Origin: Naegleria gruberi
Lineage: Eukaryota
Assembly (NCBI GenBank): GCA_000004985.1
Contig: GG738866.1
Direction: 5' to 3' (one strand)
DNA length: 64,000 bases
Numbering within the stretch: the stretch's first letter is position 1; each line of letters opens with the position of its first letter. A program made the position numbers and the translations under genes. This document shows positions 2,728 through 60,323 of this stretch, one piece after another. Below the pieces are notes generated by a model that made no database searches, was not told the origin of the DNA, and was given only the letters and a program-made list of their open reading frames with translations.

Positions 2728-3408
2728 ATGGTTTGTGTCATTTTGCTATTGGATGTCAATAACACAGAATTGACCAACTCAACAGAAGAACACAGACGTT
2801 TATCTGCCAAGCTAAAGGATAAATATCAAACAACAGCCAAGTTGACCATCTTTGCACACTATTCCATCGATGATTCCAACAAACCTCAACATTATTTCAG
2901 CAGAAGAGATCCTTCATTCTCTCACAGCAGCTTACTAACTATGCCAGAATCTTCGTTCATCACAAACATTCTCCGATTTTATCCCAAAGCTCTAAAATAT
3001 GCACCTCCAGAATATAGAAATAATCAAGTTATAGTTTTGACAGCAGTTCGACATTATGATAGTTGTTTGGAATATGCTGGGGAGGAATTGTTGAATAGTT
3101 TACAGTTTGCTATGCGATTGGTGAGTGAGAGAGGTCTGTATTATAGATATTTACCTGAAAATGTCAAGTGTGAAAGACAAGTGGCAAGACAAGCTGTTAT
3201 GCAAAATGGGCACGTGTATCAGTTCCTATCTCAAGAATTGAGACAAGATGGAGAACTGTTAGTATTGGCAATGAAAACGAATAGTCAAGCCATTTCGTAT
3301 GCTCATCCTAAACTGTTATCTGAAATTAATAATCAAGAATTCAAGAGAGATTATTCTATACTATCTGAGAATAGAGATCATTTAAATGATTTGGCTATAA
3401 ATCCATAA
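2728..3408 (+). CDS. DUF4116-type repeat protein, 226 aa.
   Basis: Two or three ~45-aa repeats of the form ..ALKYAPPEYRNNQVIVLTAVRHYDSCLEYAGEEL.. and ..ARQAVMQNGHVYQFLSQELRQDGELLVLAMKTNSQAISYA.. These match the DUF4116 repeat pattern common in protist proteomes. Confidence 0.5.
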   Translation: MVCVILLLDVNNTELTNSTEEHRRLSAKLKDKYQTTAKLTIFAHYSIDDSNKPQHYFSRRDPSFSHSSLLTMPESSFITNILRFYPKALKYAPPEYRNNQVIVLTAVRHYDSCLEYAGEELLNSLQFAMRLVSERGLYYRYLPENVKCERQVARQAVMQNGHVYQFLSQELRQDGELLVLAMKTNSQAISYAHPKLLSEINNQEFKRDYSILSENRDHLNDLAINP

Positions 3409-3578: not shown

Positions 3579-5249
3579 ATGCAGCAAAATCGAAAGAATA
3601 GTAGGCAAGATCCAATTACATTGGAAAGGGTATACTTCTCTCCGGTATCATTGCAAAGTGATACTGAAAAACCATCATTATTCGAAAAAACTATTCGAAA
3701 GGAAAATCGTATTCATAATTTTTTCCTTAGTATTCGCATGAGTATTTGTACTTTCAATTTTATCATCTTTTTCATACTTGTTATAGTTTGTACATTAACT
3801 TTTGCTTTTTCCTTTCGCGATTCCTTTCGAATAGTTGAGAAGAAACAATCTGATGATTATTCGAAACAAACCATCAACGCTTTTCGAGATGAATTCTTAA
3901 ATCTTAATGACAAAATAGCCAACTATGCAATATGGGACAATATATACGAAATGGTCCATTCATCAAATGCTGCCAATCAAGTTTCTCTCTTCTTCCAAAC
4001 TTACTATCCCTGTTATTTCATGGAGAGAATGTCATTGAATTATATTGCAATGTATTATCCGAATGGTACCCTACTACATTACAAATCATGTTGGAATTTG
4101 GACGAAATTAATGGACTGATTGATGAATTAATTCATTTAGATTCGTTTTATTTAAGGAATTGGAATGATTCTTCAATGAGAGTGAATTCAATTTTGATAC
4201 CCAAACAGAAAATCAACAAGAAAACTTTCGAGTTGGAAATTCTTCCGCCAATTCAATTTAAAAATCATGCAAATCTTACGTATGAGGAAATTCTATTAAT
4301 TTCTGGAACCCCAATTCAAACTTTGAATACAAGTATGGCAGATGGGTTTATTATTTATGGAAGATATTTGGAAAGGGATGTTTTGAATGAAATTGCATTG
4401 AGAACTGGTCATTGCTTTACTGTTTATAATATGGATGATTTGACAGATGTGTCACAACTCAAAATTGATATGGATTTACAAAATGTGAATGGATTGAATG
4501 ATTCCCAAGTAGTATTTGAGTATTTAGAGAATGCCAATTATCATAATTTTGAATCTACTTTGAATGAATATTCATCTTTTTTTGATAGACACGAAATAGA
4601 AAGTTCAAGTTTTCTTACCAAAGTTTCACAAGTTTATTCATATGAAGATAGAACATGTCCTTCATACTTTGGAGTTTCAAATCCATCTACATCATCTGTT
4701 GGAACAAGATTAGTTAACTTTCTCTTATTCAGAGATTTTAAAAACAAGGCAGTAATGGTTGTGAGAATTGATGATGAGCGAAGGAATGAATCGATAATTA
4801 TTGGAGGATCCGCTTCAATCTATGTCTTCTTTGCACTTCTTTCCACAATCTTGAGTTTAGCATTGCAGGGATTTTTTGAAATTGGTATTATTCTAAGGGT
4901 TTCATCCATCCAAAAAATAATTAAGAAAGTCACACAAGACAATGACCCAACACTAAGAATACCCCCTCCAAAACACCAACTCCACGAAAAAGATGAAATT
5001 GGACAATTAGAAATCAACCTAAACGAAATGCTTCGAGCATTAGAATTGGTGCAACACAAACTCTCAAAAGATAACGAAATGATGAAAACAATTTTGGAGA
5101 GAATTACTGTAGAGGGAGAGAAATGTAAGGCAGTGATGAATAGTATTCAGGATTTTATATTTATTGTGGAGTGTGAGAGTGGAAAGTTGATTAGTTCGAA
5201 TGAAACATTTGAAAGAAAGGTTTCCAATGGTTCAAAAAATGTTTTGTGA
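3579..5249 (+). CDS. Two-TM sensor protein, 556 aa as annotated: large extracytoplasmic domain, then HAMP, then the start of a PAS domain. Broken by a frameshift at its 3' end.
   Basis: TM1 is ICTFNFIIFFILVIVCTLTFAF. It is followed by a ~330-aa N-glycosylation-rich ectodomain, then TM2 IIIGGSASIYVFFALLSTILSLALQGFF. A HAMP-like segment follows (..DEIGQLEINLNEMLRALELV..), then a PAS start (DFIFIVECESGKLISSNETFE). The ORF terminates at a TGA just after an A6 run at 5234-5239. Confidence 0.6.
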   Translation: MQQNRKNSRQDPITLERVYFSPVSLQSDTEKPSLFEKTIRKENRIHNFFLSIRMSICTFNFIIFFILVIVCTLTFAFSFRDSFRIVEKKQSDDYSKQTINAFRDEFLNLNDKIANYAIWDNIYEMVHSSNAANQVSLFFQTYYPCYFMERMSLNYIAMYYPNGTLLHYKSCWNLDEINGLIDELIHLDSFYLRNWNDSSMRVNSILIPKQKINKKTFELEILPPIQFKNHANLTYEEILLISGTPIQTLNTSMADGFIIYGRYLERDVLNEIALRTGHCFTVYNMDDLTDVSQLKIDMDLQNVNGLNDSQVVFEYLENANYHNFESTLNEYSSFFDRHEIESSSFLTKVSQVYSYEDRTCPSYFGVSNPSTSSVGTRLVNFLLFRDFKNKAVMVVRIDDERRNESIIIGGSASIYVFFALLSTILSLALQGFFEIGIILRVSSIQKIIKKVTQDNDPTLRIPPPKHQLHEKDEIGQLEINLNEMLRALELVQHKLSKDNEMMKTILERITVEGEKCKAVMNSIQDFIFIVECESGKLISSNETFERKVSNGSKNVL

Positions 5250-8676: not shown

Positions 8677-9810
8677 ATGTTTTCAAAAATTTGGAAGGCT
8701 TCTCTGACCTGTCATGATCTAAATATAAAGATTACAAAAAAAATGGGCAACAAGCAACCTTCCAACACTCCAGCCTTGCCTGCTGGTTATTCAAAGTCTT
8801 CATCATCGTGTACACCATCGAAGAGTAGTGGCCACTCTTTAATTACTGATTATTTTTCTACCAATTGTAAATTAATTAGAATTAGTGATGCTGATCGGAA
8901 ACAAGAATTGGAAAGTATGAATAGAAACAAAATTAAATATTCAAGTAAATTGGAAAATAATTTACCAGAGGAAATGATCATTCACATTTTGGATTATTTA
9001 CCCATTAGAAATTTAGTATTATTGCAACAAGTTTCGAAAAATTTCAAAATCTATTGGACTCTGTTTCCAGAATTGTGGACTAAATTTTCTGCTCCAATGA
9101 TGTACATGCCAGACAATAACGGAAATTGGACTAGCAGTTATATTCTCTTTCAACAATTCAAATTCAAATTGATGAATTCTTTTGTGAAGGATAAGAAAAC
9201 TCCTAATTTAGAAGGAAAAATTTCAAGAATTGCAGTGTTGGGTGATGATAAAATTGGAAAGACAATCCTTCATCATAGAGCATTTGGAGGTGAACCATTT
9301 TCAGAGATTTACACTTGGACCATTGGTGTCGAGTTTTTCAATCGAATTAATACTCAAAATTTATTGAGAATGCATTCGTGGGATTCTGGTGGTAATGAAC
9401 GATTTAGGGAAATTGTTTGGGGATATCACAAGACTGTAAAGAGTCACTTTTATTGTTTTGATTTGAATAATCACAATTCTTTTGAGAATGCCAAGAAATT
9501 ATTCTACTCTTGGAAGGAAAGATTTTTACAAACTGAAACTGTCGAGTCATTTTTGCAAAGTAATGAATCGTGCATTCTTCTACTGGGATTGAAATCAGAT
9601 TTGGAGCATAAAGTGACTCGAGATGAAATTCATGAATTTTTGGAAGATATTGAGCCACTTAAAAACAAGACACTTCACACCAGCAAAGTTCAATATTTTG
9701 AATTGAGCTCTAAATTAGATTCTGAATCGGATCTGCTTTTCCCATTTATTTATGCATGTTCGGTGGCGATTGAAAGGCCTCTTTTTTCTTCTTTTGGAGG
9801 TTCTAAATAG
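8677..9810 (+). CDS. F-box protein fused to a Rab-like small-GTPase domain with atypical G3/G4 motifs, 377 aa.
   Basis: F-box: LPEEMIIHILDYLPIRNLVLLQQVSKNFKIYWTLFPELW. GTPase domain: G1 is GDDKIGKT and switch I is TIGVEF. G3 is WDSGGNERF where the canonical form is WDTAGQERF (catalytic Gln is Asn). G4 is LKSD where the canonical form is NKxD. Confidence 0.7.
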   Translation: MFSKIWKASLTCHDLNIKITKKMGNKQPSNTPALPAGYSKSSSSCTPSKSSGHSLITDYFSTNCKLIRISDADRKQELESMNRNKIKYSSKLENNLPEEMIIHILDYLPIRNLVLLQQVSKNFKIYWTLFPELWTKFSAPMMYMPDNNGNWTSSYILFQQFKFKLMNSFVKDKKTPNLEGKISRIAVLGDDKIGKTILHHRAFGGEPFSEIYTWTIGVEFFNRINTQNLLRMHSWDSGGNERFREIVWGYHKTVKSHFYCFDLNNHNSFENAKKLFYSWKERFLQTETVESFLQSNESCILLLGLKSDLEHKVTRDEIHEFLEDIEPLKNKTLHTSKVQYFELSSKLDSESDLLFPFIYACSVAIERPLFSSFGGSK

Positions 9811-34304: not shown

Positions 34305-37300
34305 TTATTCATCTTCATGGATTGGAGAGGAGGCTGAAAGTGGACTGGAAGGTGTGTTTGGTAGAGAGCTTGTCAATAAAATGTTATTATCGGATGTATT
34401 GTGTGCAGGAGTGACAAGAGTTGTGTTGATAGATTTTGGAATGATTGTTGGCTGGAACATTTCATCAATGAGGGACAACACTTGCCAATAGTCAGTCTTA
34501 ATGGAAAGATGAGCATTTTCCTCTTTTTGAGTCAACTTGATAAGGAGGTGATATTTAGGAGGGAGAAAGATGAAAATATAATCATTCTGATTCACTGCAA
34601 ATAATTTGTAACTATCCATAACCTCACTCACCTGTGTATTTCTCAATACTTTGACACTTGATACAATTTTAGCATCCTTACAATTCCAAATGGCCTCAAA
34701 GAGTGTCTCTTTAGTGAGATTATCTGGGAGGTCCTTGTCAAAGATTGGTAGGAATAAGTCTTTAAATTCAATGGAAATGTCATTCAATACAGTTTGACAG
34801 TAGGCAGTAGATGGCTCAATAGTAGTCGATTGTGTTGATGATTTAATGCCAGTGAAGGTGGCAGTGACATTAATGAGGCCAGGAAGAGGTTTCAATGGGA
34901 AAAATTTGATGGTGAATAAGTGATCGGATGGGAGAAGGATATCCTCTTCTTGTGAGGTTTTAAGATCGAGTGATGGAAGTTTAATGTATGGAACATTAAT
35001 AAAATTATCAATTCCAACAAATCGATGAGCATCTTCACCTCCAAATGACAACTCAATGCCAACCAATTTGTCCATATCCAAACTGAGAGAGGAAACATTC
35101 ATTGGTGATAACTTGTACTGTAATTGAATTTGATACTTGAAACTCTTCAAATATTTTTCAAAATAAAAGTGGAGAATATGGGAAGAATCGTCCTTTCTCA
35201 AAGATCCCAGATGTGCAGCAGACCCAACCCTGAATGAGTTGGTTTGTTGCTCCAGTGAAAGCTCATGACAAATATTCTTCACAAATGAAACACTGAGAAT
35301 ATTTGGTACTGGAATTGGTTCAGTAATTTCAAAGACATTGCCTGATCCAAGAATTCCATCCTTCTTAATATCCAAATCTGTTTCAAAACCAAAAATACCC
35401 AAAAGTTTCCTCTTATTTGTTACCTGGTTGATTATGTTAAAGTAAAAGCTACTCCTTTGTTTGATTTCCAAACTATTATAATCCTGAATGAGTAGAGTTA
35501 AAATATTATTACTGATTTCCTGTTGTTCTTGCTCAAGGTGGACCTCATCATTTTTGAAACAGGATGGTTCATTACATGCACGATAGACAACCATTCTAAT
35601 GATGGAAAGAACAGAATCTCCATGATGCCAATCACCAAAATTGGCAATGAGCTTGCTCCTCACAAATTTATGAAGACAAGATAACATTTTCTAATAATTT
35701 GCTGAATTAATAATGAAGAAAGAGTATGAAACATACAGTTACTTGATCCTTTCTCAAGTTGTTAATCAGCGCCTCAAAGAGCGAGAAATAATAGCCAAGG
35801 TTTTCATTTGGTAGATTGACTATGTGATCGAATAGTCCATTCACTAATTCATTATTTGAGTCTGTAAAACTTAGTGAATTGATTAATGAAATTGTATAAT
35901 TCAAAATTGGAGAAATTAAAAGATTCAAACTACTTTCTCTTTCCAACATGTCAACCAAAAAGCTAAATATTATATGTTAAATATTTCTAGGCAATTAGAA
36001 CTTACTCCAGGGTTGGTTTGTATTGAGTGGAATTATTTTGATAGGAGAAATAGATGAAATTGAATATAATATCTAAACGAATGTATAATTGTCTTTCAAT
36101 TCTAGAAACATTTGGAGCACTTTCTTCTTGAATTTGTGGCTGCTTGAATGATTTGCTATAGTATTTGGAGAGGGCCTTCATGTAATATCTGTAATCGGCT
36201 ACACAGTCCAGTAAATGTAACATGTTCCTTTTTAGAGAATATGGGTCAATAAATTCATACTTGTTTCAAAACTTACTCCATATCGTTAGTTTTCCTGGTT
36301 GAAATAATTTTGCACTTTTCCTTCTTAATTGGTAGTTCATCAAAATATTTAATTCCAATCTTTTCTGGATTGTTTTGGAAATAAAGTAATTGCTCTCTCA
36401 CATACAAAGGCTGACTATAATCATCCACACTCAATACGTAGTCATCTCTAATATGTTGCTTATTTGAAATGGTATTATGGCAAAATATATGAACCAAATA
36501 CGAGTTGATACTATGTTTGAATTTCCTAAAAACTCGTTTCCAAACATGATCTGGATATTCAGTATCCTTGATAATTTGTGAAATTATTTCAAAAATTGCA
36601 GCTCTTCCCCAAATTGTAAAGATCTGAATATTTTCAATAAGAAAAGTCAAACTATTGACAACTTCTCTCTTTGTCTTGTTTGTTTCCAAATAAATTAAAT
36701 TTGCTAATAAGGTAGAAAATGATTGAAGGGCATGTGAATTCTCAGTCTGACAACACTTCAACACTGTTGGAATAAAATCTGTAATTCTAACATGATAAAA
36801 GTAGAGTATTTCTTGAAGAGAATCTGCTGCCATCTGTCTTTGAAGTCTAAACTGTGAATTATTTACTGTTTTTGAAATATATTGCATCAGAGAAGAAATG
36901 TGATTGGCAATCATTGTTGGATTCACTTGATGTAAATTGTGTGTAATGTACATGGTTGTTATTGTCACTAAAAGTTGAGCATAGGTAATATCATCCACCT
37001 TTCCACTGTTAATTATATTCTGTAAATCTGTTAAATATTCATAAAGCCTTCAGATAATTTAAATTATTTAAATAATAACAAAATAATAAATTTAAATAAT
37101 GAATTATTTAAAATCATATTCCATAAATCAATCCTGAAATTATAAACCTACTTGGGAATATTATTTCTAAACAAGACACTCGAATATTCTTGTAAAAACA
37201 CACAAACATAAATCTTTCGAGCAATTAATTGTTGAGCATCAGTGTACTTTTCCGAATCAATTTTTCCTTCCGAATTTCTACATTGATAATCAACACTTGG

Positions 37301-57034: not shown

Positions 57035-58255
57035 TTAATTATTCTTGGTTGCTAATGATTTACAAATGGTTAACAAATCAGATTTTTCCACAATGTGAAG
57101 ATCTGGTTGGAGGAAGACACTTTTGTAATTGCTGGCCATGTAATCCAGGGTTGAACGTAAGAAAGTGTGAGATTGATGTTCCTTAGCAGCACTGTAGAAT
57201 ACAAAAATGTTTTCTGATGAAACAACCTTTCTGAAGAGATTGACACAATATTCAGATAATCCTGGTAACATTAATTGATCTGCCAAAACAAATGTTTCAA
57301 TCAAATGACATGGTCTTACATTTGTAAAACTACTGTACATATAATCCAATGCTGCAACTAGGGCAGGGAATGGAGCAAATGTGTCAACTACAATGGTATT
57401 ATTTACAGAGCTATCGATAAGAGTCTTTAAAAATGGAGATCTAGCAGCAAGGATAGCTTTCAAACATTTGATTTCTCTTCCAGAACTCTTATGAACGACA
57501 GTTAAATCAGCATGCAAACCACTCTTCAAAAGACTTCTATAAAATTTGCTAATTTCTGGAACTTCTTCCTTTTGAACACCTCCTTTTCCACAAATTTTGA
57601 CTGCATCAATTTCTGTCCAACCTCCATTCATACTTAAATCAATTCTAATAGCATTAGTTTTAAATCCTTTTACAGTCAATTCTGGAGCAAAATCTCTTGC
57701 TACATGGATACCATTTGTTGCAGGACCAGACCACAAAGTAACCCATTCATTTGAATTTTCACGTCTTCCACTAATTTTAGTAACAGATCCAGGTGTTGAT
57801 GATTCATAAATATGAACACTATAAACAGACATGACATGATCGTAACCCAATTCAATAAATTCAGGTCCTGTAGTATTATTTGGACACCAAGCAGAGCCAC
57901 TTGATGAATAGGTTGGATAGACCCTACAAGGACCTACCACATTATTGGCATGATAAGATGTTGGATCACCTCTTTAGAAAATAACAATGTCAACATTCCA
58001 TACAAACTGAAAAACAACTTACCCCCAGTAAGAGCTATACGAAATCACAGAAGAAGCCCATTGTTCGGAAGGTCCTACATCTTCTTCCTCTTCTTCATCC
58101 TCTTCATCTCCAAATTTATAGTCATCATAATAATCAGGTGCAATATCCTGCACTCTATACTTGCTATTGACCGATGCTGATGATGAACCTTGTTCTTCTT
58201 CGTTAATCAATACAATAGTCGAATCGTTGTTCTCTCTTCTTGGAATTGGGAGCAT
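57035..58255 (-). CDS. BTB/POZ-domain protein with an N-terminal galactose-binding/discoidin-like domain, two exons, 389 aa.
   Basis: complement(join(57035..57971,58023..58255)). Exon 1 (MLPIPRRENN...acidic...SEQWASSVISYSSYW) ends at a GTAAGT donor (phase 2). A 51-nt intron ends CTAAAG. Exon 2 carries a beta-sandwich-like region (..GPCRVYPTYSSSGSAWCPNNTTGPEFIELGYDHVMSVYSVHIYES...AIRIDLSMNGGWTEIDAVKI), then BTB (ADLTVVHKSSGREIKCLKAILAARSPFLKTLIDSS..IVVDTFAPFPALVAALDYMY) and a BACK-like tail. Confidence 0.7.
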
Positions 58256-58505: not shown

Positions 58506-60323
58506 ATGAGAAAACTTGCCTCGTTTCTTGGTGGTGGTAAATCTTCATCATCAAATGGTTCTTCTTCATCACCTTCAGCATCGGGTACTAGTAATGAAAG
58601 AGTTTCATCCAACAAACAGCAAGGTTCCCTTTCTATAGTAACAACATCATCAATTGGTGTTGCCGTTGGTGATTCTTCATCATCTCCATCATCAAATAAT
58701 AATAACAATGGAAGTAAAACTCCAAGAAGTAATTTCTCTAGATCGACTAGTAATACTAAAATTAATTCTTCATCATCCTCTTCATTGGAAAGGAATAATA
58801 TTGAACAGGAAATTCAAAATATAATTTTTAATACTTCACAAATTAATACACTCTCCAAAGTACCTAATGTTCAACCGGAATATTATTTGAAAATTGTTGT
58901 TTTGGGAGGACCATCTGTTGGAAAATCGGCAATAATTAATAGATATTTGAAAAATAAGGATCATCCTGCTTTATCAGTAACAAAGAGTGGATTGTACATA
59001 CCAACAATAGGAGTCGACATGTATAGTAAGCCTGTTAAGAAATATAGAGATGCTTCGATAACAAAATGTAAATCAATTCAATTTCCAGTGAGATTGACGA
59101 TACTAGATGTTCCACATAGTGAATTTATGAAACAATCAGTGTCAAAATATTTTGAAAATGCACATGGAATAGTGTTAGCTTTTGATGTGACTAATATCAA
59201 GTCAATTAGTGCTATTGATCAGTGGCGATCCAAAATTCCATCACATCTCCTTACAAGTACAGTTTTACTTGCCCATAAAGCCGAGTTAAAGCCACACATT
59301 ATCACTCCAAACTCTCTAGATAATTATGTTAGAGATTCTGGATTATTGGCATGGTTTTCAACATCGATTAGAAATTTCCAATCCATCAATGGAGCATTCC
59401 AATACCTTGTCGATAGAAGTCTGTCAAAATTAATCAAAAAATATCAAGGACTGCCTACATTGAATCATCAAATGAATGCTGTCTCAATGGCTAGAAAATC
59501 TTCATCGATTCCATTGGCAGAATCCAAGTCTGATAACTTGGCCGAGTCTCTTCAATATTCCAATTCTGTAGAATCCAATTCTGATACAGGATCTATTTCT
59601 AAGGATGATTCCAAACAAATAGTGGAAGGATTTTCTACTCTCTACGACATGTTGGAGGACAAGAATCCAAATTTAACAATGGAATTTATAGAAAAATTCA
59701 GAAGTGAAATTACATCTTTTTATTTCCAATTATCAAGCAGATTTAAAGAGTTCAAAGTGGTATGTCAGAGTTGTGACACGAGCTCAAACGATCAAAAGTT
59801 GATGGATCTACTGATAAATGAATGTGATGCTGAAAGAATCATTCTCCTTAACAAATTAGCTCTCGTTGAAAAGGAACTTGTAAAGTGTAATAGTATCTAT
59901 ACGGAAAATAATACTCCCATGAAAAATCTCACCAAACTGTACATTGAACTCAAGAGAGAATTTTATATTGTAAAGATTGAAAAATGGATAAGTTTTTGGT
60001 ATTCCTTAAAATCAAGATTTTGCCTGAGTCAAATTTTCTACAAGGACACCAAACAAGATTGTCAACAATTACCAGAGATTTCGGAATCACTCTACAGCCA
60101 ACCTATCAATCAAAATATTGTAGCCAAACTGGAAAGCAGAAGGGCAAAAATTGAAAAACTCAAACAACATTCCAAAATACAATCTAAAGAAATATCTCAG
60201 AAAGAGGATGAAAATCTTGTAGAGAGTGATAGTACATTCTCTGTTATCAATCAAATTTTCAAAGCAGAAATGTATGTGGACATATTCCCTCAATTAACAG
60301 AACTCAATAAATTAAATAAATAG
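58506..60323 (+). CDS. Rab-like pseudo-GTPase, 605 aa: an intact P-loop with degenerate G3/G4 motifs and a long C-terminal coiled-coil.
   Basis: A Ser-rich N-terminus is followed by the G domain. G1 is GGPSVGKS and switch I is TIGVDM. G3 is LDVPHSE where the canonical form is WDTAGQE. G4 is AHKAELK where the canonical form is GNKxDL. A ~300-aa helical tail follows. Confidence 0.7.
   Translation: MRKLASFLGGGKSSSSNGSSSSPSASGTSNERVSSNKQQGSLSIVTTSSIGVAVGDSSSSPSSNNNNNGSKTPRSNFSRSTSNTKINSSSSSSLERNNIEQEIQNIIFNTSQINTLSKVPNVQPEYYLKIVVLGGPSVGKSAIINRYLKNKDHPALSVTKSGLYIPTIGVDMYSKPVKKYRDASITKCKSIQFPVRLTILDVPHSEFMKQSVSKYFENAHGIVLAFDVTNIKSISAIDQWRSKIPSHLLTSTVLLAHKAELKPHIITPNSLDNYVRDSGLLAWFSTSIRNFQSINGAFQYLVDRSLSKLIKKYQGLPTLNHQMNAVSMARKSSSIPLAESKSDNLAESLQYSNSVESNSDTGSISKDDSKQIVEGFSTLYDMLEDKNPNLTMEFIEKFRSEITSFYFQLSSRFKEFKVVCQSCDTSSNDQKLMDLLINECDAERIILLNKLALVEKELVKCNSIYTENNTPMKNLTKLYIELKREFYIVKIEKWISFWYSLKSRFCLSQIFYKDTKQDCQQLPEISESLYSQPINQNIVAKLESRRAKIEKLKQHSKIQSKEISQKEDENLVESDSTFSVINQIFKAEMYVDIFPQLTELNKLNK

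Follow-up and report, generated by a model that had tools for sequence, protein, structure and literature searches.

RabTitan of Naegleria gruberi: an already catalogued, divergent Rab-like protein with altered G3 and G4 motifs

Our analysis of the window, the whole 64,000-nucleotide stretch of Naegleria gruberi DNA under study, identifies the gene at 58506-60323 as the sole N. gruberi orthologue of RabTitan, a protein that is real and odd, already catalogued and not new. We regard as probable the explanation in which this RabTitan presumably keeps its nucleotide, is impaired in hydrolysis and acts as an adaptor. The open reading frame (ORF) is present as a sequence-only reading of the same DNA, made before our analysis, had described it (605 aa, plus strand).

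58506..60323, + strand: N. gruberi RabTitan gene, single exon and complete, 605 aa plus stop (XP_002677502.1 / EFC44758.1)

The product is identical to the NCBI entry 'small GTPase [Naegleria gruberi]', XP_002677502.1 (identity and coverage both 100%). Table S8 of Herman et al. 2021 assigns this accession to RabTitan in both its N. gruberi and N. fowleri sheets, on the basis of the Rab dataset of Elias et al. 2012 with added Naegleria sequences; RabTitan is entered there once per Naegleria species, with 'yes' for orthologues outside Heterolobosea and with no pseudogene flag. Taken with the derived motifs that it shares with the family, this published annotation argues for placing the N. gruberi protein within the RabTitan clade. 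Klopper et al. 2012, who described RabTitans from N. gruberi, D. discoideum and B. floridae, reported that all RabTitans are without C-terminal cysteines, that they score below the Ran or Rho/Rac proteins of the same species in a general Rab HMM, and that it is doubtful whether they are Rabs at all. The protein described here, a listed member, likewise has no C-terminal Cys, is distant from standard Rabs and has relatives in Dictyostelia. It is 605 aa long, and its full-length relatives span 458-797 aa. RabTitan is said to have been proposed by Elias and colleagues in 2012 as a Rab-like paralogue of LECA level, and its name reportedly refers to a size far above that of a standard Rab of ~200 aa, due to extensions.

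The G domain and its motifs are as follows.

58881..59444, + strand: Rab32-like G domain (aa 126-313)
58905..58928, + strand: G1 / P-loop, GGPSVGKS, an intact GxxxxGK[ST]
58995..59021, + strand: switch I / G2, YIPTIGVDM, with the Thr equivalent to Ras T35 and a RabF1-like IGVD
59103..59123, + strand: degenerate G3, LDVPHSE, with the Asp retained, and with His and Ser where Ras has G60 and Q61
59265..59285, + strand: degenerate G4, LLAHKAE, with N replaced by H, D by E and the Lys retained
59355..59372, + strand: G5-like FSTSIR, compared with ETSxK (FETSAK in Rab32)

In the Pfam comparison that the sequence-only reading had asked for, Ras (PF00071) matched residues 129-304 with E=5e-16 and Roc matched with E=2e-10. 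G1 (aa 134-141) and switch I (aa 164-172) lie where they had been claimed to lie, and the claims of a degenerate G3 and G4 stand: LDVPHSE (aa 200-206) falls residue for residue opposite the WDIAG(Q/L)E of Rab29 and Rab32, and LLAHKAE (aa 254-260) falls opposite LLANKxD. A test for misplaced motifs had been set beforehand, and it found no DxxG in the whole protein and no NKxD within the G domain; the only [NT]KxD is a TKQD at aa 515, far beyond the G domain. The G3 substitutions are not noise, because DxPHSE is unchanged in all four Naegleria sequences.

Other departures from a typical Rab G domain are an insert of ~10 residues ahead of switch I and a lengthened beta2-beta3 region. The RabF1-F5 motifs, which Pereira-Leal and Seabra reportedly gave in 2000 as IGVDF, KLQIW, RFrsiT, YYRGA and LVYDIT, are by direct reading kept for F1 (IGVDM) and F5 (LAFDVT), partial for F4 (YFENA) and F2 (RLTIL), and lost for F3 (FMKQSV). 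The protein has the Ras-superfamily G-domain fold with Rabs as its best similarity, and it lacks the canonical DxxGQ, the canonical NKxD and the C-terminal geranylgeranylated Cys, with the REP/GDI-dependent membrane cycling that this Cys implies, that define a Rab sensu stricto. It has lost catalytic residues in the manner of a pseudoGTPase, the equivalents of Gly60 and Gln61 being His and Ser in a change that is conserved.

The nearest solved relatives of N. gruberi RabTitan were Rab32/38, which came top in each sequence and fold comparison, and a search with an alignment of the G domain only placed Rab38 first among canonical proteins. Membership of the Rab32/38/29 subfamily was considered and rejected: its members are nearest by score, but the canonical WDIAGQE, the length of ~200-225 aa and the prenylated C-terminal Cys of Rab32, Rab38 and Rab29 (Rab7L1) are all absent from RabTitan, which is extended by ~120 aa N-terminally and by ~290 aa C-terminally. 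Three bona fide N. gruberi Rab32 paralogues (Rab32A, Rab32B and Rab32) are entered separately in Table S8 of Herman et al. 2021.

The RabTitan family was recovered by an exhaustive profile search, of which the best 150 matches were considered. A distinct top group scored ~60-190 bits, the low end of which overlaps the generic Ras-superfamily matches (mostly ~54-65 bits), and a few multi-domain Rab proteins reached ~136 bits in the same search; the C-terminal motifs and the variant forms of G3 and G4 are common to the matches of the top group. The family is old and patchy in its distribution, and its sources included Acrasis, Percolomonas, the euglenid Ploeotia, Mastigamoeba, the dictyostelids Acytostelium and Synstelium and the protosteloid amoeba Clastostelium. 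Branchiostoma and Dictyostelium have been cited as bearing RabTitan outside Heterolobosea, and there was no metazoan member among the best 150 matches. Word-indexed searches with the full protein, the family alignment or the G-domain alignment found no family beyond Naegleria, except for one fragment (P0018) with the G-domain query, probably because low-complexity and generic GTPase words crowded the candidate list. Within Naegleria, identity to the N. gruberi protein is 50-53% for the full-length sequences of N. fowleri and N. lovaniensis and 64% for a partial Naegleria-like one, and the orthologues share long invariant blocks, among them the 'degenerate' motifs as well as the C-terminal domain.

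Outside the G domain, the following regions were delimited.

58506..58535, + strand: motif at the N-terminus, MRKLASFLGG, fitting M-x-x-[LIFW]-x-x-x-[FL]
58536..58877, + strand: Ser/Asn-rich low-complexity N-terminal extension (aa 11-124)
59502..59648, + strand: disordered Ser-rich linker (aa 333-381), AlphaFold2 pLDDT <50, with lengths that vary among orthologues
59679..60056, + strand: conserved C-terminal helical domain, with helices at aa 392-422, 427-464 and 471-517
60108..60185, + strand: additional basic helix (aa 535-560), AlphaFold2 block-mean pLDDT 54-74
60228..60260, + strand: C-terminal aromatic short motif DSTFSVINQIF, opposite NFKFL, FNFKLP, FNFPKL and YHFPYL elsewhere in the family

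The first ten residues recur in similar form in heterolobosean, amoebozoan and unsourced members (MKNLWKRFSL, MNAFYKFFTL, MNTIYKLFSA, MLQFLSSLFT, MFNWLASKFS, and further MKKIFDSLFA, MISKLFESFL, MLSKLYFYLN and MLKLLGSLFS), and may form a short amphipathic element that binds a membrane or a partner. The rest of the N-terminal extension shows little conservation of length or sequence between the Naegleria orthologues, and Ser and Asn make up 32% and 14%, respectively, of aa 1-117 in N. gruberi.

The C-terminal region was modelled with AlphaFold2 on an alignment of 26 family sequences, an earlier run on four sequences having been poor (pLDDT 44.6). The helical block of ~125 aa comprises three long helices separated by loops of 4-6 residues, with pLDDT means over 10-residue blocks of 71-97, dropping to ~53 where the third helix ends; the predicted topology is likely to be a three-helix bundle. 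The helices of the tail abound in aromatic residues (F, Y, W), and the block carries the family motifs F..E...FY and LY.ELKR.FY.....KW..LW.SL. It is kept in Acrasis, Percolomonas, Mastigamoeba, the dictyostelids and others, and one Trp in it is invariant. The additional helix at aa 535-560 contains KLESR.HKIEKLK, conserved among the Naegleria orthologues, and is followed by a disordered end of low confidence. The coiled-coil of ~300 aa seen by the sequence-only reading is borne out in part: the model supports three helices of 31-47 residues and one of 26, but the linker is disordered and the end is of low confidence. A GFGFR-type motif occurs further downstream in several amoebozoan and unsourced members, and the alignment puts it outside the columns of DSTFSVINQIF.

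A profile of the C-terminal domain had no significant match and no known homologue in PDB or Pfam. The best PDB matches were Saglin (E=0.048) and the Habc domain of syntaxin-1A (E ~0.1), and DUF2465 in Pfam reached E=0.003, under its cut-off; homology is claimed for none of these. Fold searches with the whole model listed G-domain matches only. There is no Cys for prenylation at the C-terminus, as the last 10 residues are Cys-free (...TELNKLNK / ...FPQLTELNKLNK) and the last Cys is at aa 519. None of the full-length family members examined ends in CC or CxC, and one fragment (P0034) ends in ...FCCPS.

A census of the motifs across the family revealed both retained and replaced positions. Every one of 23 sequences has the P-loop G, G, K and S/T; at switch I, Thr is found in 21/23 and Ser in the other two, and the G5 Thr is present in 24/24. 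The G3 consensus is D-[VI]-P-H-x-E, with Asp (or Glu) in 24/24; Ras position 60 is never Gly in the 24 sequences (H18 F2 Y1 V1 L2) and position 61 is Gln in a single one (S8 A10 T3 P2 Q1). G4 takes the form [NH]Kx[DE], with Asn and His in 13 sequences each, Lys in 26/26, and Asp in 20 as against Glu in six, the latter being only the four Naegleria sequences, Percolomonas and an unsourced member (P0016); P0003, the partial Naegleria-like sequence, reads NKAE. By this comparison, the broken G3 is a family-wide, old and conserved replacement, and not decay.

The sequence-only reading had predicted a hydrolysis-dead protein. It is right that the G domain has neither NKxD nor the usual Gly and Gln of G3, and since this loss is conserved, one can reasonably predict that intrinsic hydrolysis is impaired. 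'Hydrolysis-dead' is nevertheless too strong, because the positions for phosphate and Mg2+ binding are near invariant in the family. With some GTPases it is the GAP that contributes the catalytic residue in trans. The bulky His in place of Gly60 could block the normal gamma-phosphate contact. RabTitan would have an altered switch II, and its intrinsic GTPase activity would be low or nil. The G domain would still be bound to guanine nucleotide, a prediction that is securer for the NKxD members than for the HKAE proteins of Naegleria, which may bind guanine weakly or no longer, because both G4 specificity residues are changed. A G domain that kept its nucleotide and hydrolysed next to none of it would therefore be a constitutively loaded or otherwise regulated adaptor, and not a fast-cycling switch; we propose such a role for RabTitan. 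The C-terminal helices would then provide a module for partner binding or dimerization, and the conserved N-terminal hydrophobic motif, rather than a lipid tail, would be the candidate anchor to a membrane or partner.

Replacement of the catalytic Gln within a Ras-like fold is also seen in Rnd/RhoE, RhoH, Rab24 (Ser for Gln), IFT22/RabL5, EhRabX10 and the AAGAB pseudoGTPase domain (psGD), hydrolysis-impaired GTPases or pseudoGTPases that share with RabTitan an atypical G4 or G5 and a predicted low intrinsic hydrolysis. However, these are unrelated lineages, and RabTitan has an old combination of its own, in which Gly60 gives way to a conserved His after a conserved Pro.

The alteration in Naegleria of the G3 Gly/Gln and of both G4 specificity residues could also be read as the mark of a class-i pseudoGTPase, in which the G domain is nucleotide-free and a pure protein-interaction scaffold like AAGAB; documented pseudoGTPases such as the AAGAB domain do employ the fold solely for binding. 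We consider this unlikely for RabTitan, as the P-loop (23/23), the switch I Thr/Ser (23/23), the G3 Asp/Glu (24/24), the G4 Lys (26/26) and the G5 Thr (24/24) are kept across distant eukaryotes, and half of the family (13/26) retains the G4 Asn and 20/26 the Asp.

It is less probable again that RabTitan is an active GTPase with non-canonical catalysis, whether by the His of DVPH or by a GAP residue in trans. In EF-Tu, His84 of the DxPGH motif is the catalytic residue, and the known in-trans GAP mechanisms include the dual finger of TBC domains and the Asn thumb of Rap1GAP. The D-x-P-H of RabTitan resembles the DxPGH of translation factors, with His in 18/24 sequences, and the binding residues for phosphate and Mg2+ are conserved. 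Nevertheless, this His sits at the position of Gly60 and not one after it, and an EF-Tu-like catalytic role is down-weighted because Phe, Tyr, Leu or Val is tolerated there in 6/24 sequences, which would be unexpected for a catalytic residue. We know of no GAP for RabTitan.

The sequence-only reading had further noted two divergent Ras-superfamily proteins in the 64-kb window, both predicted to be hydrolysis-dead, and had taken them to suggest one expanded pseudo-GTPase family in this organism. Both proteins are present, the second being an F-box Ras-superfamily ORF at 8677-9810(+) (XP_002677491.1), although hydrolysis-dead is an overstatement for RabTitan. Herman et al. 2021 entered XP_002677491.1 as 'Rab' with an F-box and described divergent Rab-like genes, extended at the N-terminus by an F-box, that have expanded specifically in Naegleria. 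It follows that an expanded divergent Rab-like family does exist in Naegleria, with the RabTitan gene outside it. Members of the F-box clades resemble RabTitan in joining a divergent Rab-like G domain to an extra region, but they are lineage-specific and multi-copy, evolve by birth and death and are without the C-terminal helical domain. That the two genes belong to one organism-specific pseudo-GTPase family is thus highly improbable, and largely refuted, in spite of their occurrence within one window and of the large F-box expansions. The two proteins are 22% identical, which is the level of the generic Ras fold, and they differ in domain architecture and in motif lesions, the F-box protein having WDSGGNE at G3, with its Gly, and LGLKSD at G4, with its Asp; its nearest solved relatives are Ypt7, Rab39B and Rab1. 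RabTitan is also single-copy in each species, and its orthologues in Amoebozoa and Euglenozoa share the G3 motif and the C-terminal domain. Two neighbouring odd GTPases do not imply one expanded pseudo-GTPase family.

A decaying Rab32 paralogue, or an annotation artefact with an accidental long ORF, might be suspected, as the motifs are degenerate and both the N-terminal region and the linker are of low complexity, but this is refuted by conservation and next to inconceivable, given an intact ORF of 605 codons, full-length orthologues at 50-53% identity in N. fowleri and N. lovaniensis, invariant blocks that cover the 'degenerate' motifs and the C-terminal domain, a family that spans supergroups and a curated table without a pseudogene flag (Herman et al. 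2021).

In the limited literature consulted, the primary RabTitan description aside, there was no mention in RabTitan of D-[VI]-P-H-x-E or [NH]Kx[DE], nor of the Rab32/38 affinity, the three-helix C-terminal block or the N-terminal motif. Our family-wide definition of motifs and domains may be the first explicit account of RabTitan anatomy.

In summary, the gene at 58506-60323 is no discovery, having been counted as the RabTitan of N. gruberi since 2012 and 2021, and it is useful as a clear-cut case of a LECA-age Rab-like paralogue whose function is unstudied. The census, with its kept nucleotide-binding residues, its Rab32/38 affinity and a C-terminal domain peculiar to the family, points to concrete constructs and mutants, most practically in Dictyostelia. 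The adaptor reading can be extended, tentatively and with considerable doubt, to a Rab32-derived adaptor of LECA age that surrendered its switch II chemistry and prenyl anchor and serves a step at endolysosomes or lysosome-related organelles. In such an adaptor, DxxGQ may have become DVPHxE, and the short amphipathic motif of the N-terminus and a family-specific bundle of three helices, which may faintly recall the syntaxin Habc domain, may be its tools. If this were true, RabTitan would represent a step that survives in scattered amoeboid and flagellate lineages and is invisible from animal, fungal and plant models.

The reading frame at 58506-60323 encodes an already known protein, the RabTitan of Naegleria gruberi, and of this identity we are very confident. 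Its 605-aa product matched the N. gruberi 'small GTPase' XP_002677502.1 / EFC44758.1 with 100 % identity over the full length, which marks the window as nuclear DNA of this species. Herman et al. 2021 (BMC Biol 19:142), who annotated the entire Ras superfamily afresh in N. gruberi and N. fowleri, list this accession as 'RabTitan' in Table S8; it is marked 'orthologs outside Heterolobosea: yes' and has neither an additional Pfam domain nor a pseudogene flag. RabTitan is named exactly once on each species sheet of that table, the N. fowleri protein being NfowleriV212_RP9. The name is seldom used in full-text literature, and later work mentions RabTitan only as patchy in distribution and lost in alveolates and animals.

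Features of the window discussed here (position, strand, description)
2728-3408, +, DUF4116-repeat protein
3579-5249, +, CHASE4-domain protein
8677-9810, +, F-box Rab, 377 aa
30407-31642, -, MIP-T3/IFT54 (ciliary)
34305-35687, -, AP-5 beta subunit
57035-57940, -, BTB-domain ORF
58019-58255, -, acidic 78-aa ORF
58506-60323, +, RabTitan
58506-58535, +, N-terminal motif of RabTitan
59679-60056, +, three long helices of RabTitan
60228-60260, +, aromatic motif near the RabTitan C-terminus

The 64 kb have a GC content of ~34 % and are dense with long ORFs on both strands, seemingly intron-poor. Eukaryotic genes include AP5B1, MIP-T3/IFT54, an OATP/MFS transporter, F-box-LRR proteins, BTB and NAF1, and the DUF4116, CHASE4, MIP-T3/IFT54 and AP-5 beta genes are in keeping with an amoeba that can form flagella and has a complete set of trafficking genes. 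The neighbouring BTB-domain ORF has a GTG start in the ORF list and the acidic ORF directly upstream on the same strand; the real BTB gene probably includes a further exon upstream or starts elsewhere. The BTB and RabTitan genes have a common divergent promoter region, with an intergenic gap of ~250-560 bp.

The sequence-only reading had described a Rab-like ORF with degenerate G3 and G4 motifs, and both points were borne out, as were the motif coordinates. The Pfam Ras model matched aa 129-304 (E=5e-16, 59 bits against a cut-off of 21.6) and Roc followed at 2e-10, while phmmer against PDB sequences returned Rabs only, led by Rab29/Rab7L1 (2.7e-14) and then Rab32. These Rab alignments placed the P-loop (G1) at GGPSVGKS and switch I at YIPTIGVD, and set LDVPHSE opposite WDIAG(Q/L)E (G3), LLAHKAE opposite LLANKxD (G4) and FSTSIR opposite ETSxK (G5). 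A regex scan for canonical motifs a few residues away found no DxxG in the whole protein and no NKxD in the G domain, the sole [NT]KxD of the protein being TKQD at aa 515; misplaced motifs, which the sequence-only reading had named as its refutation, were thus not seen. The last 86 residues contain no Cys and thus no prenylation signal.

The G domain resembles Rabs, most of all the Rab32 group, which came out on top in PDB-profile, Foldseek and word-indexed searches. The RabTitan-family profile scored Rab32 at 154 bits, followed by Rab38 (149), Rab29 (132), Rab23 (125), Rab3 (119), Rab27 (117), Rab7 (107) and Rab1 (105); Ran and Rho were absent from its best 60 PDB-sequence matches. AlphaFold2, run on a 26-sequence alignment, modelled the G domain confidently: pLDDT is ~95 for most of it and drops to near 57 in two 10-residue blocks of the N-terminal third. 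The best Foldseek match of the model was Rab32-GppCp (4cz2; TM 0.80-0.84 on target). Rab38 ranked first among canonical proteins in the word-indexed search with the G-domain profile, and the alignments show local signatures that RabTitan shares with Rab32/38/29, such as ...LD.[FY]....G[FL].[GA]W[FH].TS... This affinity, a similarity ranking rather than a phylogeny, tempers the doubt of Klopper et al. as to whether RabTitans are Rabs at all. Among the matches (numbered P0002 and so on), a group noted under P0005, P0006, P0215 and P0238 includes 335-339-aa proteins from small NCBI contigs, which join a ~170-aa N-terminal domain to a Rab-like G domain with every motif canonical (WDIAGQE, NKVD, ETSAK). 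'Rab family GTPase' entries of Promethearchaeia (Asgard) were matched as well, and the group may consist of Rab-like proteins from archaea.

A profile built from the Naegleria sequences was searched exhaustively by HMM against 1.84 billion representatives and returned 3162 Ras-superfamily matches. A distinct top tier scored ~60-190 bits, several of its alignments extending far beyond the G domain; its low end overlaps the generic matches, most of which scored ~54-65 bits, with a few multi-domain Rab proteins reaching ~136 bits. Family members came from Heterolobosea (Acrasis kona, Percolomonas cosmopolitus), the euglenid Ploeotia vitrea, Mastigamoeba balamuthi, Amoebozoa (Acytostelium subglobosum, Synstelium polycarpum, Clastostelium recurvatum), an MMETSP transcriptome and environmental contigs. 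RabTitan was reportedly put forward as a LECA Rab paralogue by Elias and colleagues in 2012.

Motif census of the RabTitan family (26-sequence alignment, Ras numbering; residue totals 23-26 by position)
P-loop G, G, K, S/T: 23/23 each
Switch I Thr (T35): Thr 21, Ser 2
G3 Asp (D57): Asp 22, Glu 2
Position 59: Pro 18, Ala 4, Ser 2
Position 60: His 18, Phe 2, Tyr 1, Val 1, Leu 2; Gly 0/24
Position 61: Ser 8, Ala 10, Thr 3, Pro 2, Gln 1
Position 62: Glu 21/24
G4 first residue (N116): Asn 13, His 13
G4 Lys (K117): 26/26
G4 last residue (D119): Asp 20, Glu 6 (four Naegleria, Percolomonas and the unsourced P0016)
G5 Thr: 24/24

With no Gly at position 60 and a single Gln at position 61, the missing G3 Gly-Gln pair reflects an old, family-defining replacement, the consensus being D-[VI]-P-H-x-E. 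In G4, HKAE occurs only in the Glu-bearing subset. Residues contacting phosphate, Mg2+ and base are under strong constraint across the census, from which we infer that nucleotide binding has been kept, at least ancestrally, and that classical intrinsic hydrolysis and switch II mechanics have not.

The tail had been described as ~300 aa of coiled coil, which the AlphaFold2 model and the 26-sequence family alignment show to be overstated: a ~125-aa family-specific helical domain and one extra helix are present, and ~100 aa or more are disordered.

Predicted layout of the RabTitan tail
To aa 313: extended helix alpha5, ending in a conserved KKYxGLP
aa 319-332: short helix, lower confidence
aa 333-381: Ser-rich disordered linker
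aa 392-422, 427-464 and 471-517: three long helices
aa 535-560: basic helix (block means 54-74) after a disordered stretch, with a low-confidence end beyond

The three long helices had 10-residue block-mean pLDDT values of 71-97, dropping to ~53 at the end of the third, and the short loops of 4-6 residues suggest that they would fold back as a bundle. This block is conserved across the family, with F..E...FY in helix 1, a near-invariant Glu in helix 2 and LY.ELKR.FY.....KW..LW.SL, including an invariant Trp, in helix 3. Its profile had no significant match in PDB sequences or Pfam; the best, Saglin (E=0.048) and syntaxin-1A Habc (E ~0.1), were at noise level and support no claim of homology. 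Alignments of profile positions 7-96 to syntaxin-1A Habc residues ~11-125 recurred at a non-significant E of ~0.1-2.

Two short elements are also conserved. An N-terminal M-x-x-[LIFW]-x-x-x-[FL] is common to many heterolobosean, amoebozoan and unsourced family members (MRKLASFL, MNAFYKFF, MLQFLSSLF, MFNWLASKF, MISKLFESF), namely, besides RabTitan, P0002, P0012, P0014, P0029, P0034, P0037, P0039, P0042, P0052 and P0059. With no prenyl tail on the protein, this motif is a candidate for anchoring it to a membrane or a partner, perhaps as a short amphipathic element; any likeness to the N-terminal helices of Arl8 and Arfrp1 is speculative. The C-terminal aromatic motif reads STFSVI in Naegleria; NFKFL and FNFPKL stand in the same columns of the alignment in discoban or unsourced proteins, and YHFPYL also falls there. 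In several other sequences, amoebozoan or unsourced, a GFGFR-, GFAFR-, GFLFR- or GFTFQ-type motif lies further downstream, outside those columns (other bearers: P0011, P0028, P0029, P0037, P0039, P0052, P0055). These may be linear binding motifs.

The most likely reading, which we hold with middling confidence, is that RabTitan has a Rab32-like G domain that would bind nucleotide with impaired hydrolysis, acting either as an adaptor that stays loaded or as an unconventionally regulated switch. The C-terminal bundle would serve interaction or dimerization, and the protein would join membranes or partners without prenylation. A class-i pseudoGTPase, devoid of nucleotide binding, is unlikely given the invariant P-loop, switch I, G4 Lys and G5 Thr. 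Less likely again is a non-canonical active GTPase working through the His or a trans-acting GAP, since F, Y, L and V also occur where the His stands.

The sequence-only reading had also joined RabTitan to the F-box Rab, the other divergent Ras-superfamily gene of the window that it predicted to be hydrolysis-dead, in one organism-specific expanded pseudo-GTPase family. This is very improbable. The F-box Rab, an F-box followed by a Ras domain, corresponds to the corrected model XP_002677491.1, listed as 'Rab / F-box' in Table S8 of Herman et al. 2021 (BMC Biol 19:142). Its motifs are GDDKIGKT, WTIGVEF, WDSGGNE (Gly kept, Gln->Asn), LGLKSD (Asn->Leu, Asp kept) and ELSSK; it shares 22 % identity with RabTitan and its best PDB matches are Ypt7, Rab39B and Rab1, not Rab32. 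The identity, the differing motifs and PDB relatives, and the published listings together make the two genes independent. Naegleria does have an expanded set of divergent Rab-like genes, for which Herman et al. 2021 (BMC Biol 19:142) describe three Naegleria-specific, differentially expanded clades with birth-and-death dynamics and conserved N-terminal extensions, recognizable as F-box in some members. The F-box Rab is of this kind and, beyond the common fold, unrelated to RabTitan, which is a single-copy old paralogue.

Least probable of all is a decaying gene. Orthologues are present in N. fowleri (FDP41_011237, 680 aa) and N. lovaniensis (C9374_003988, 586 aa), with a third Naegleria-type relative in a partial 395-aa protein from an SRA-derived assembly. 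The G domain and C-terminal region are strongly conserved among them; DxPHSE is invariant in the four aligned sequences, and G4 is HKAE in three and NKAE in one, a pattern that points to purifying selection rather than decay. Relative to window positions 58941-58991, the N. lovaniensis protein (P0004) is missing ~16 residues between helix alpha1 and switch I (…AIVN/NNGLYIPT…), and it also lacks the long N-terminal region; these gaps are probably a gene-model error (a mis-called intron) and not a real deletion. With the identity of RabTitan already published, what our study contributes is an explicit family-wide anatomy of an unstudied Rab-like protein of LECA age.
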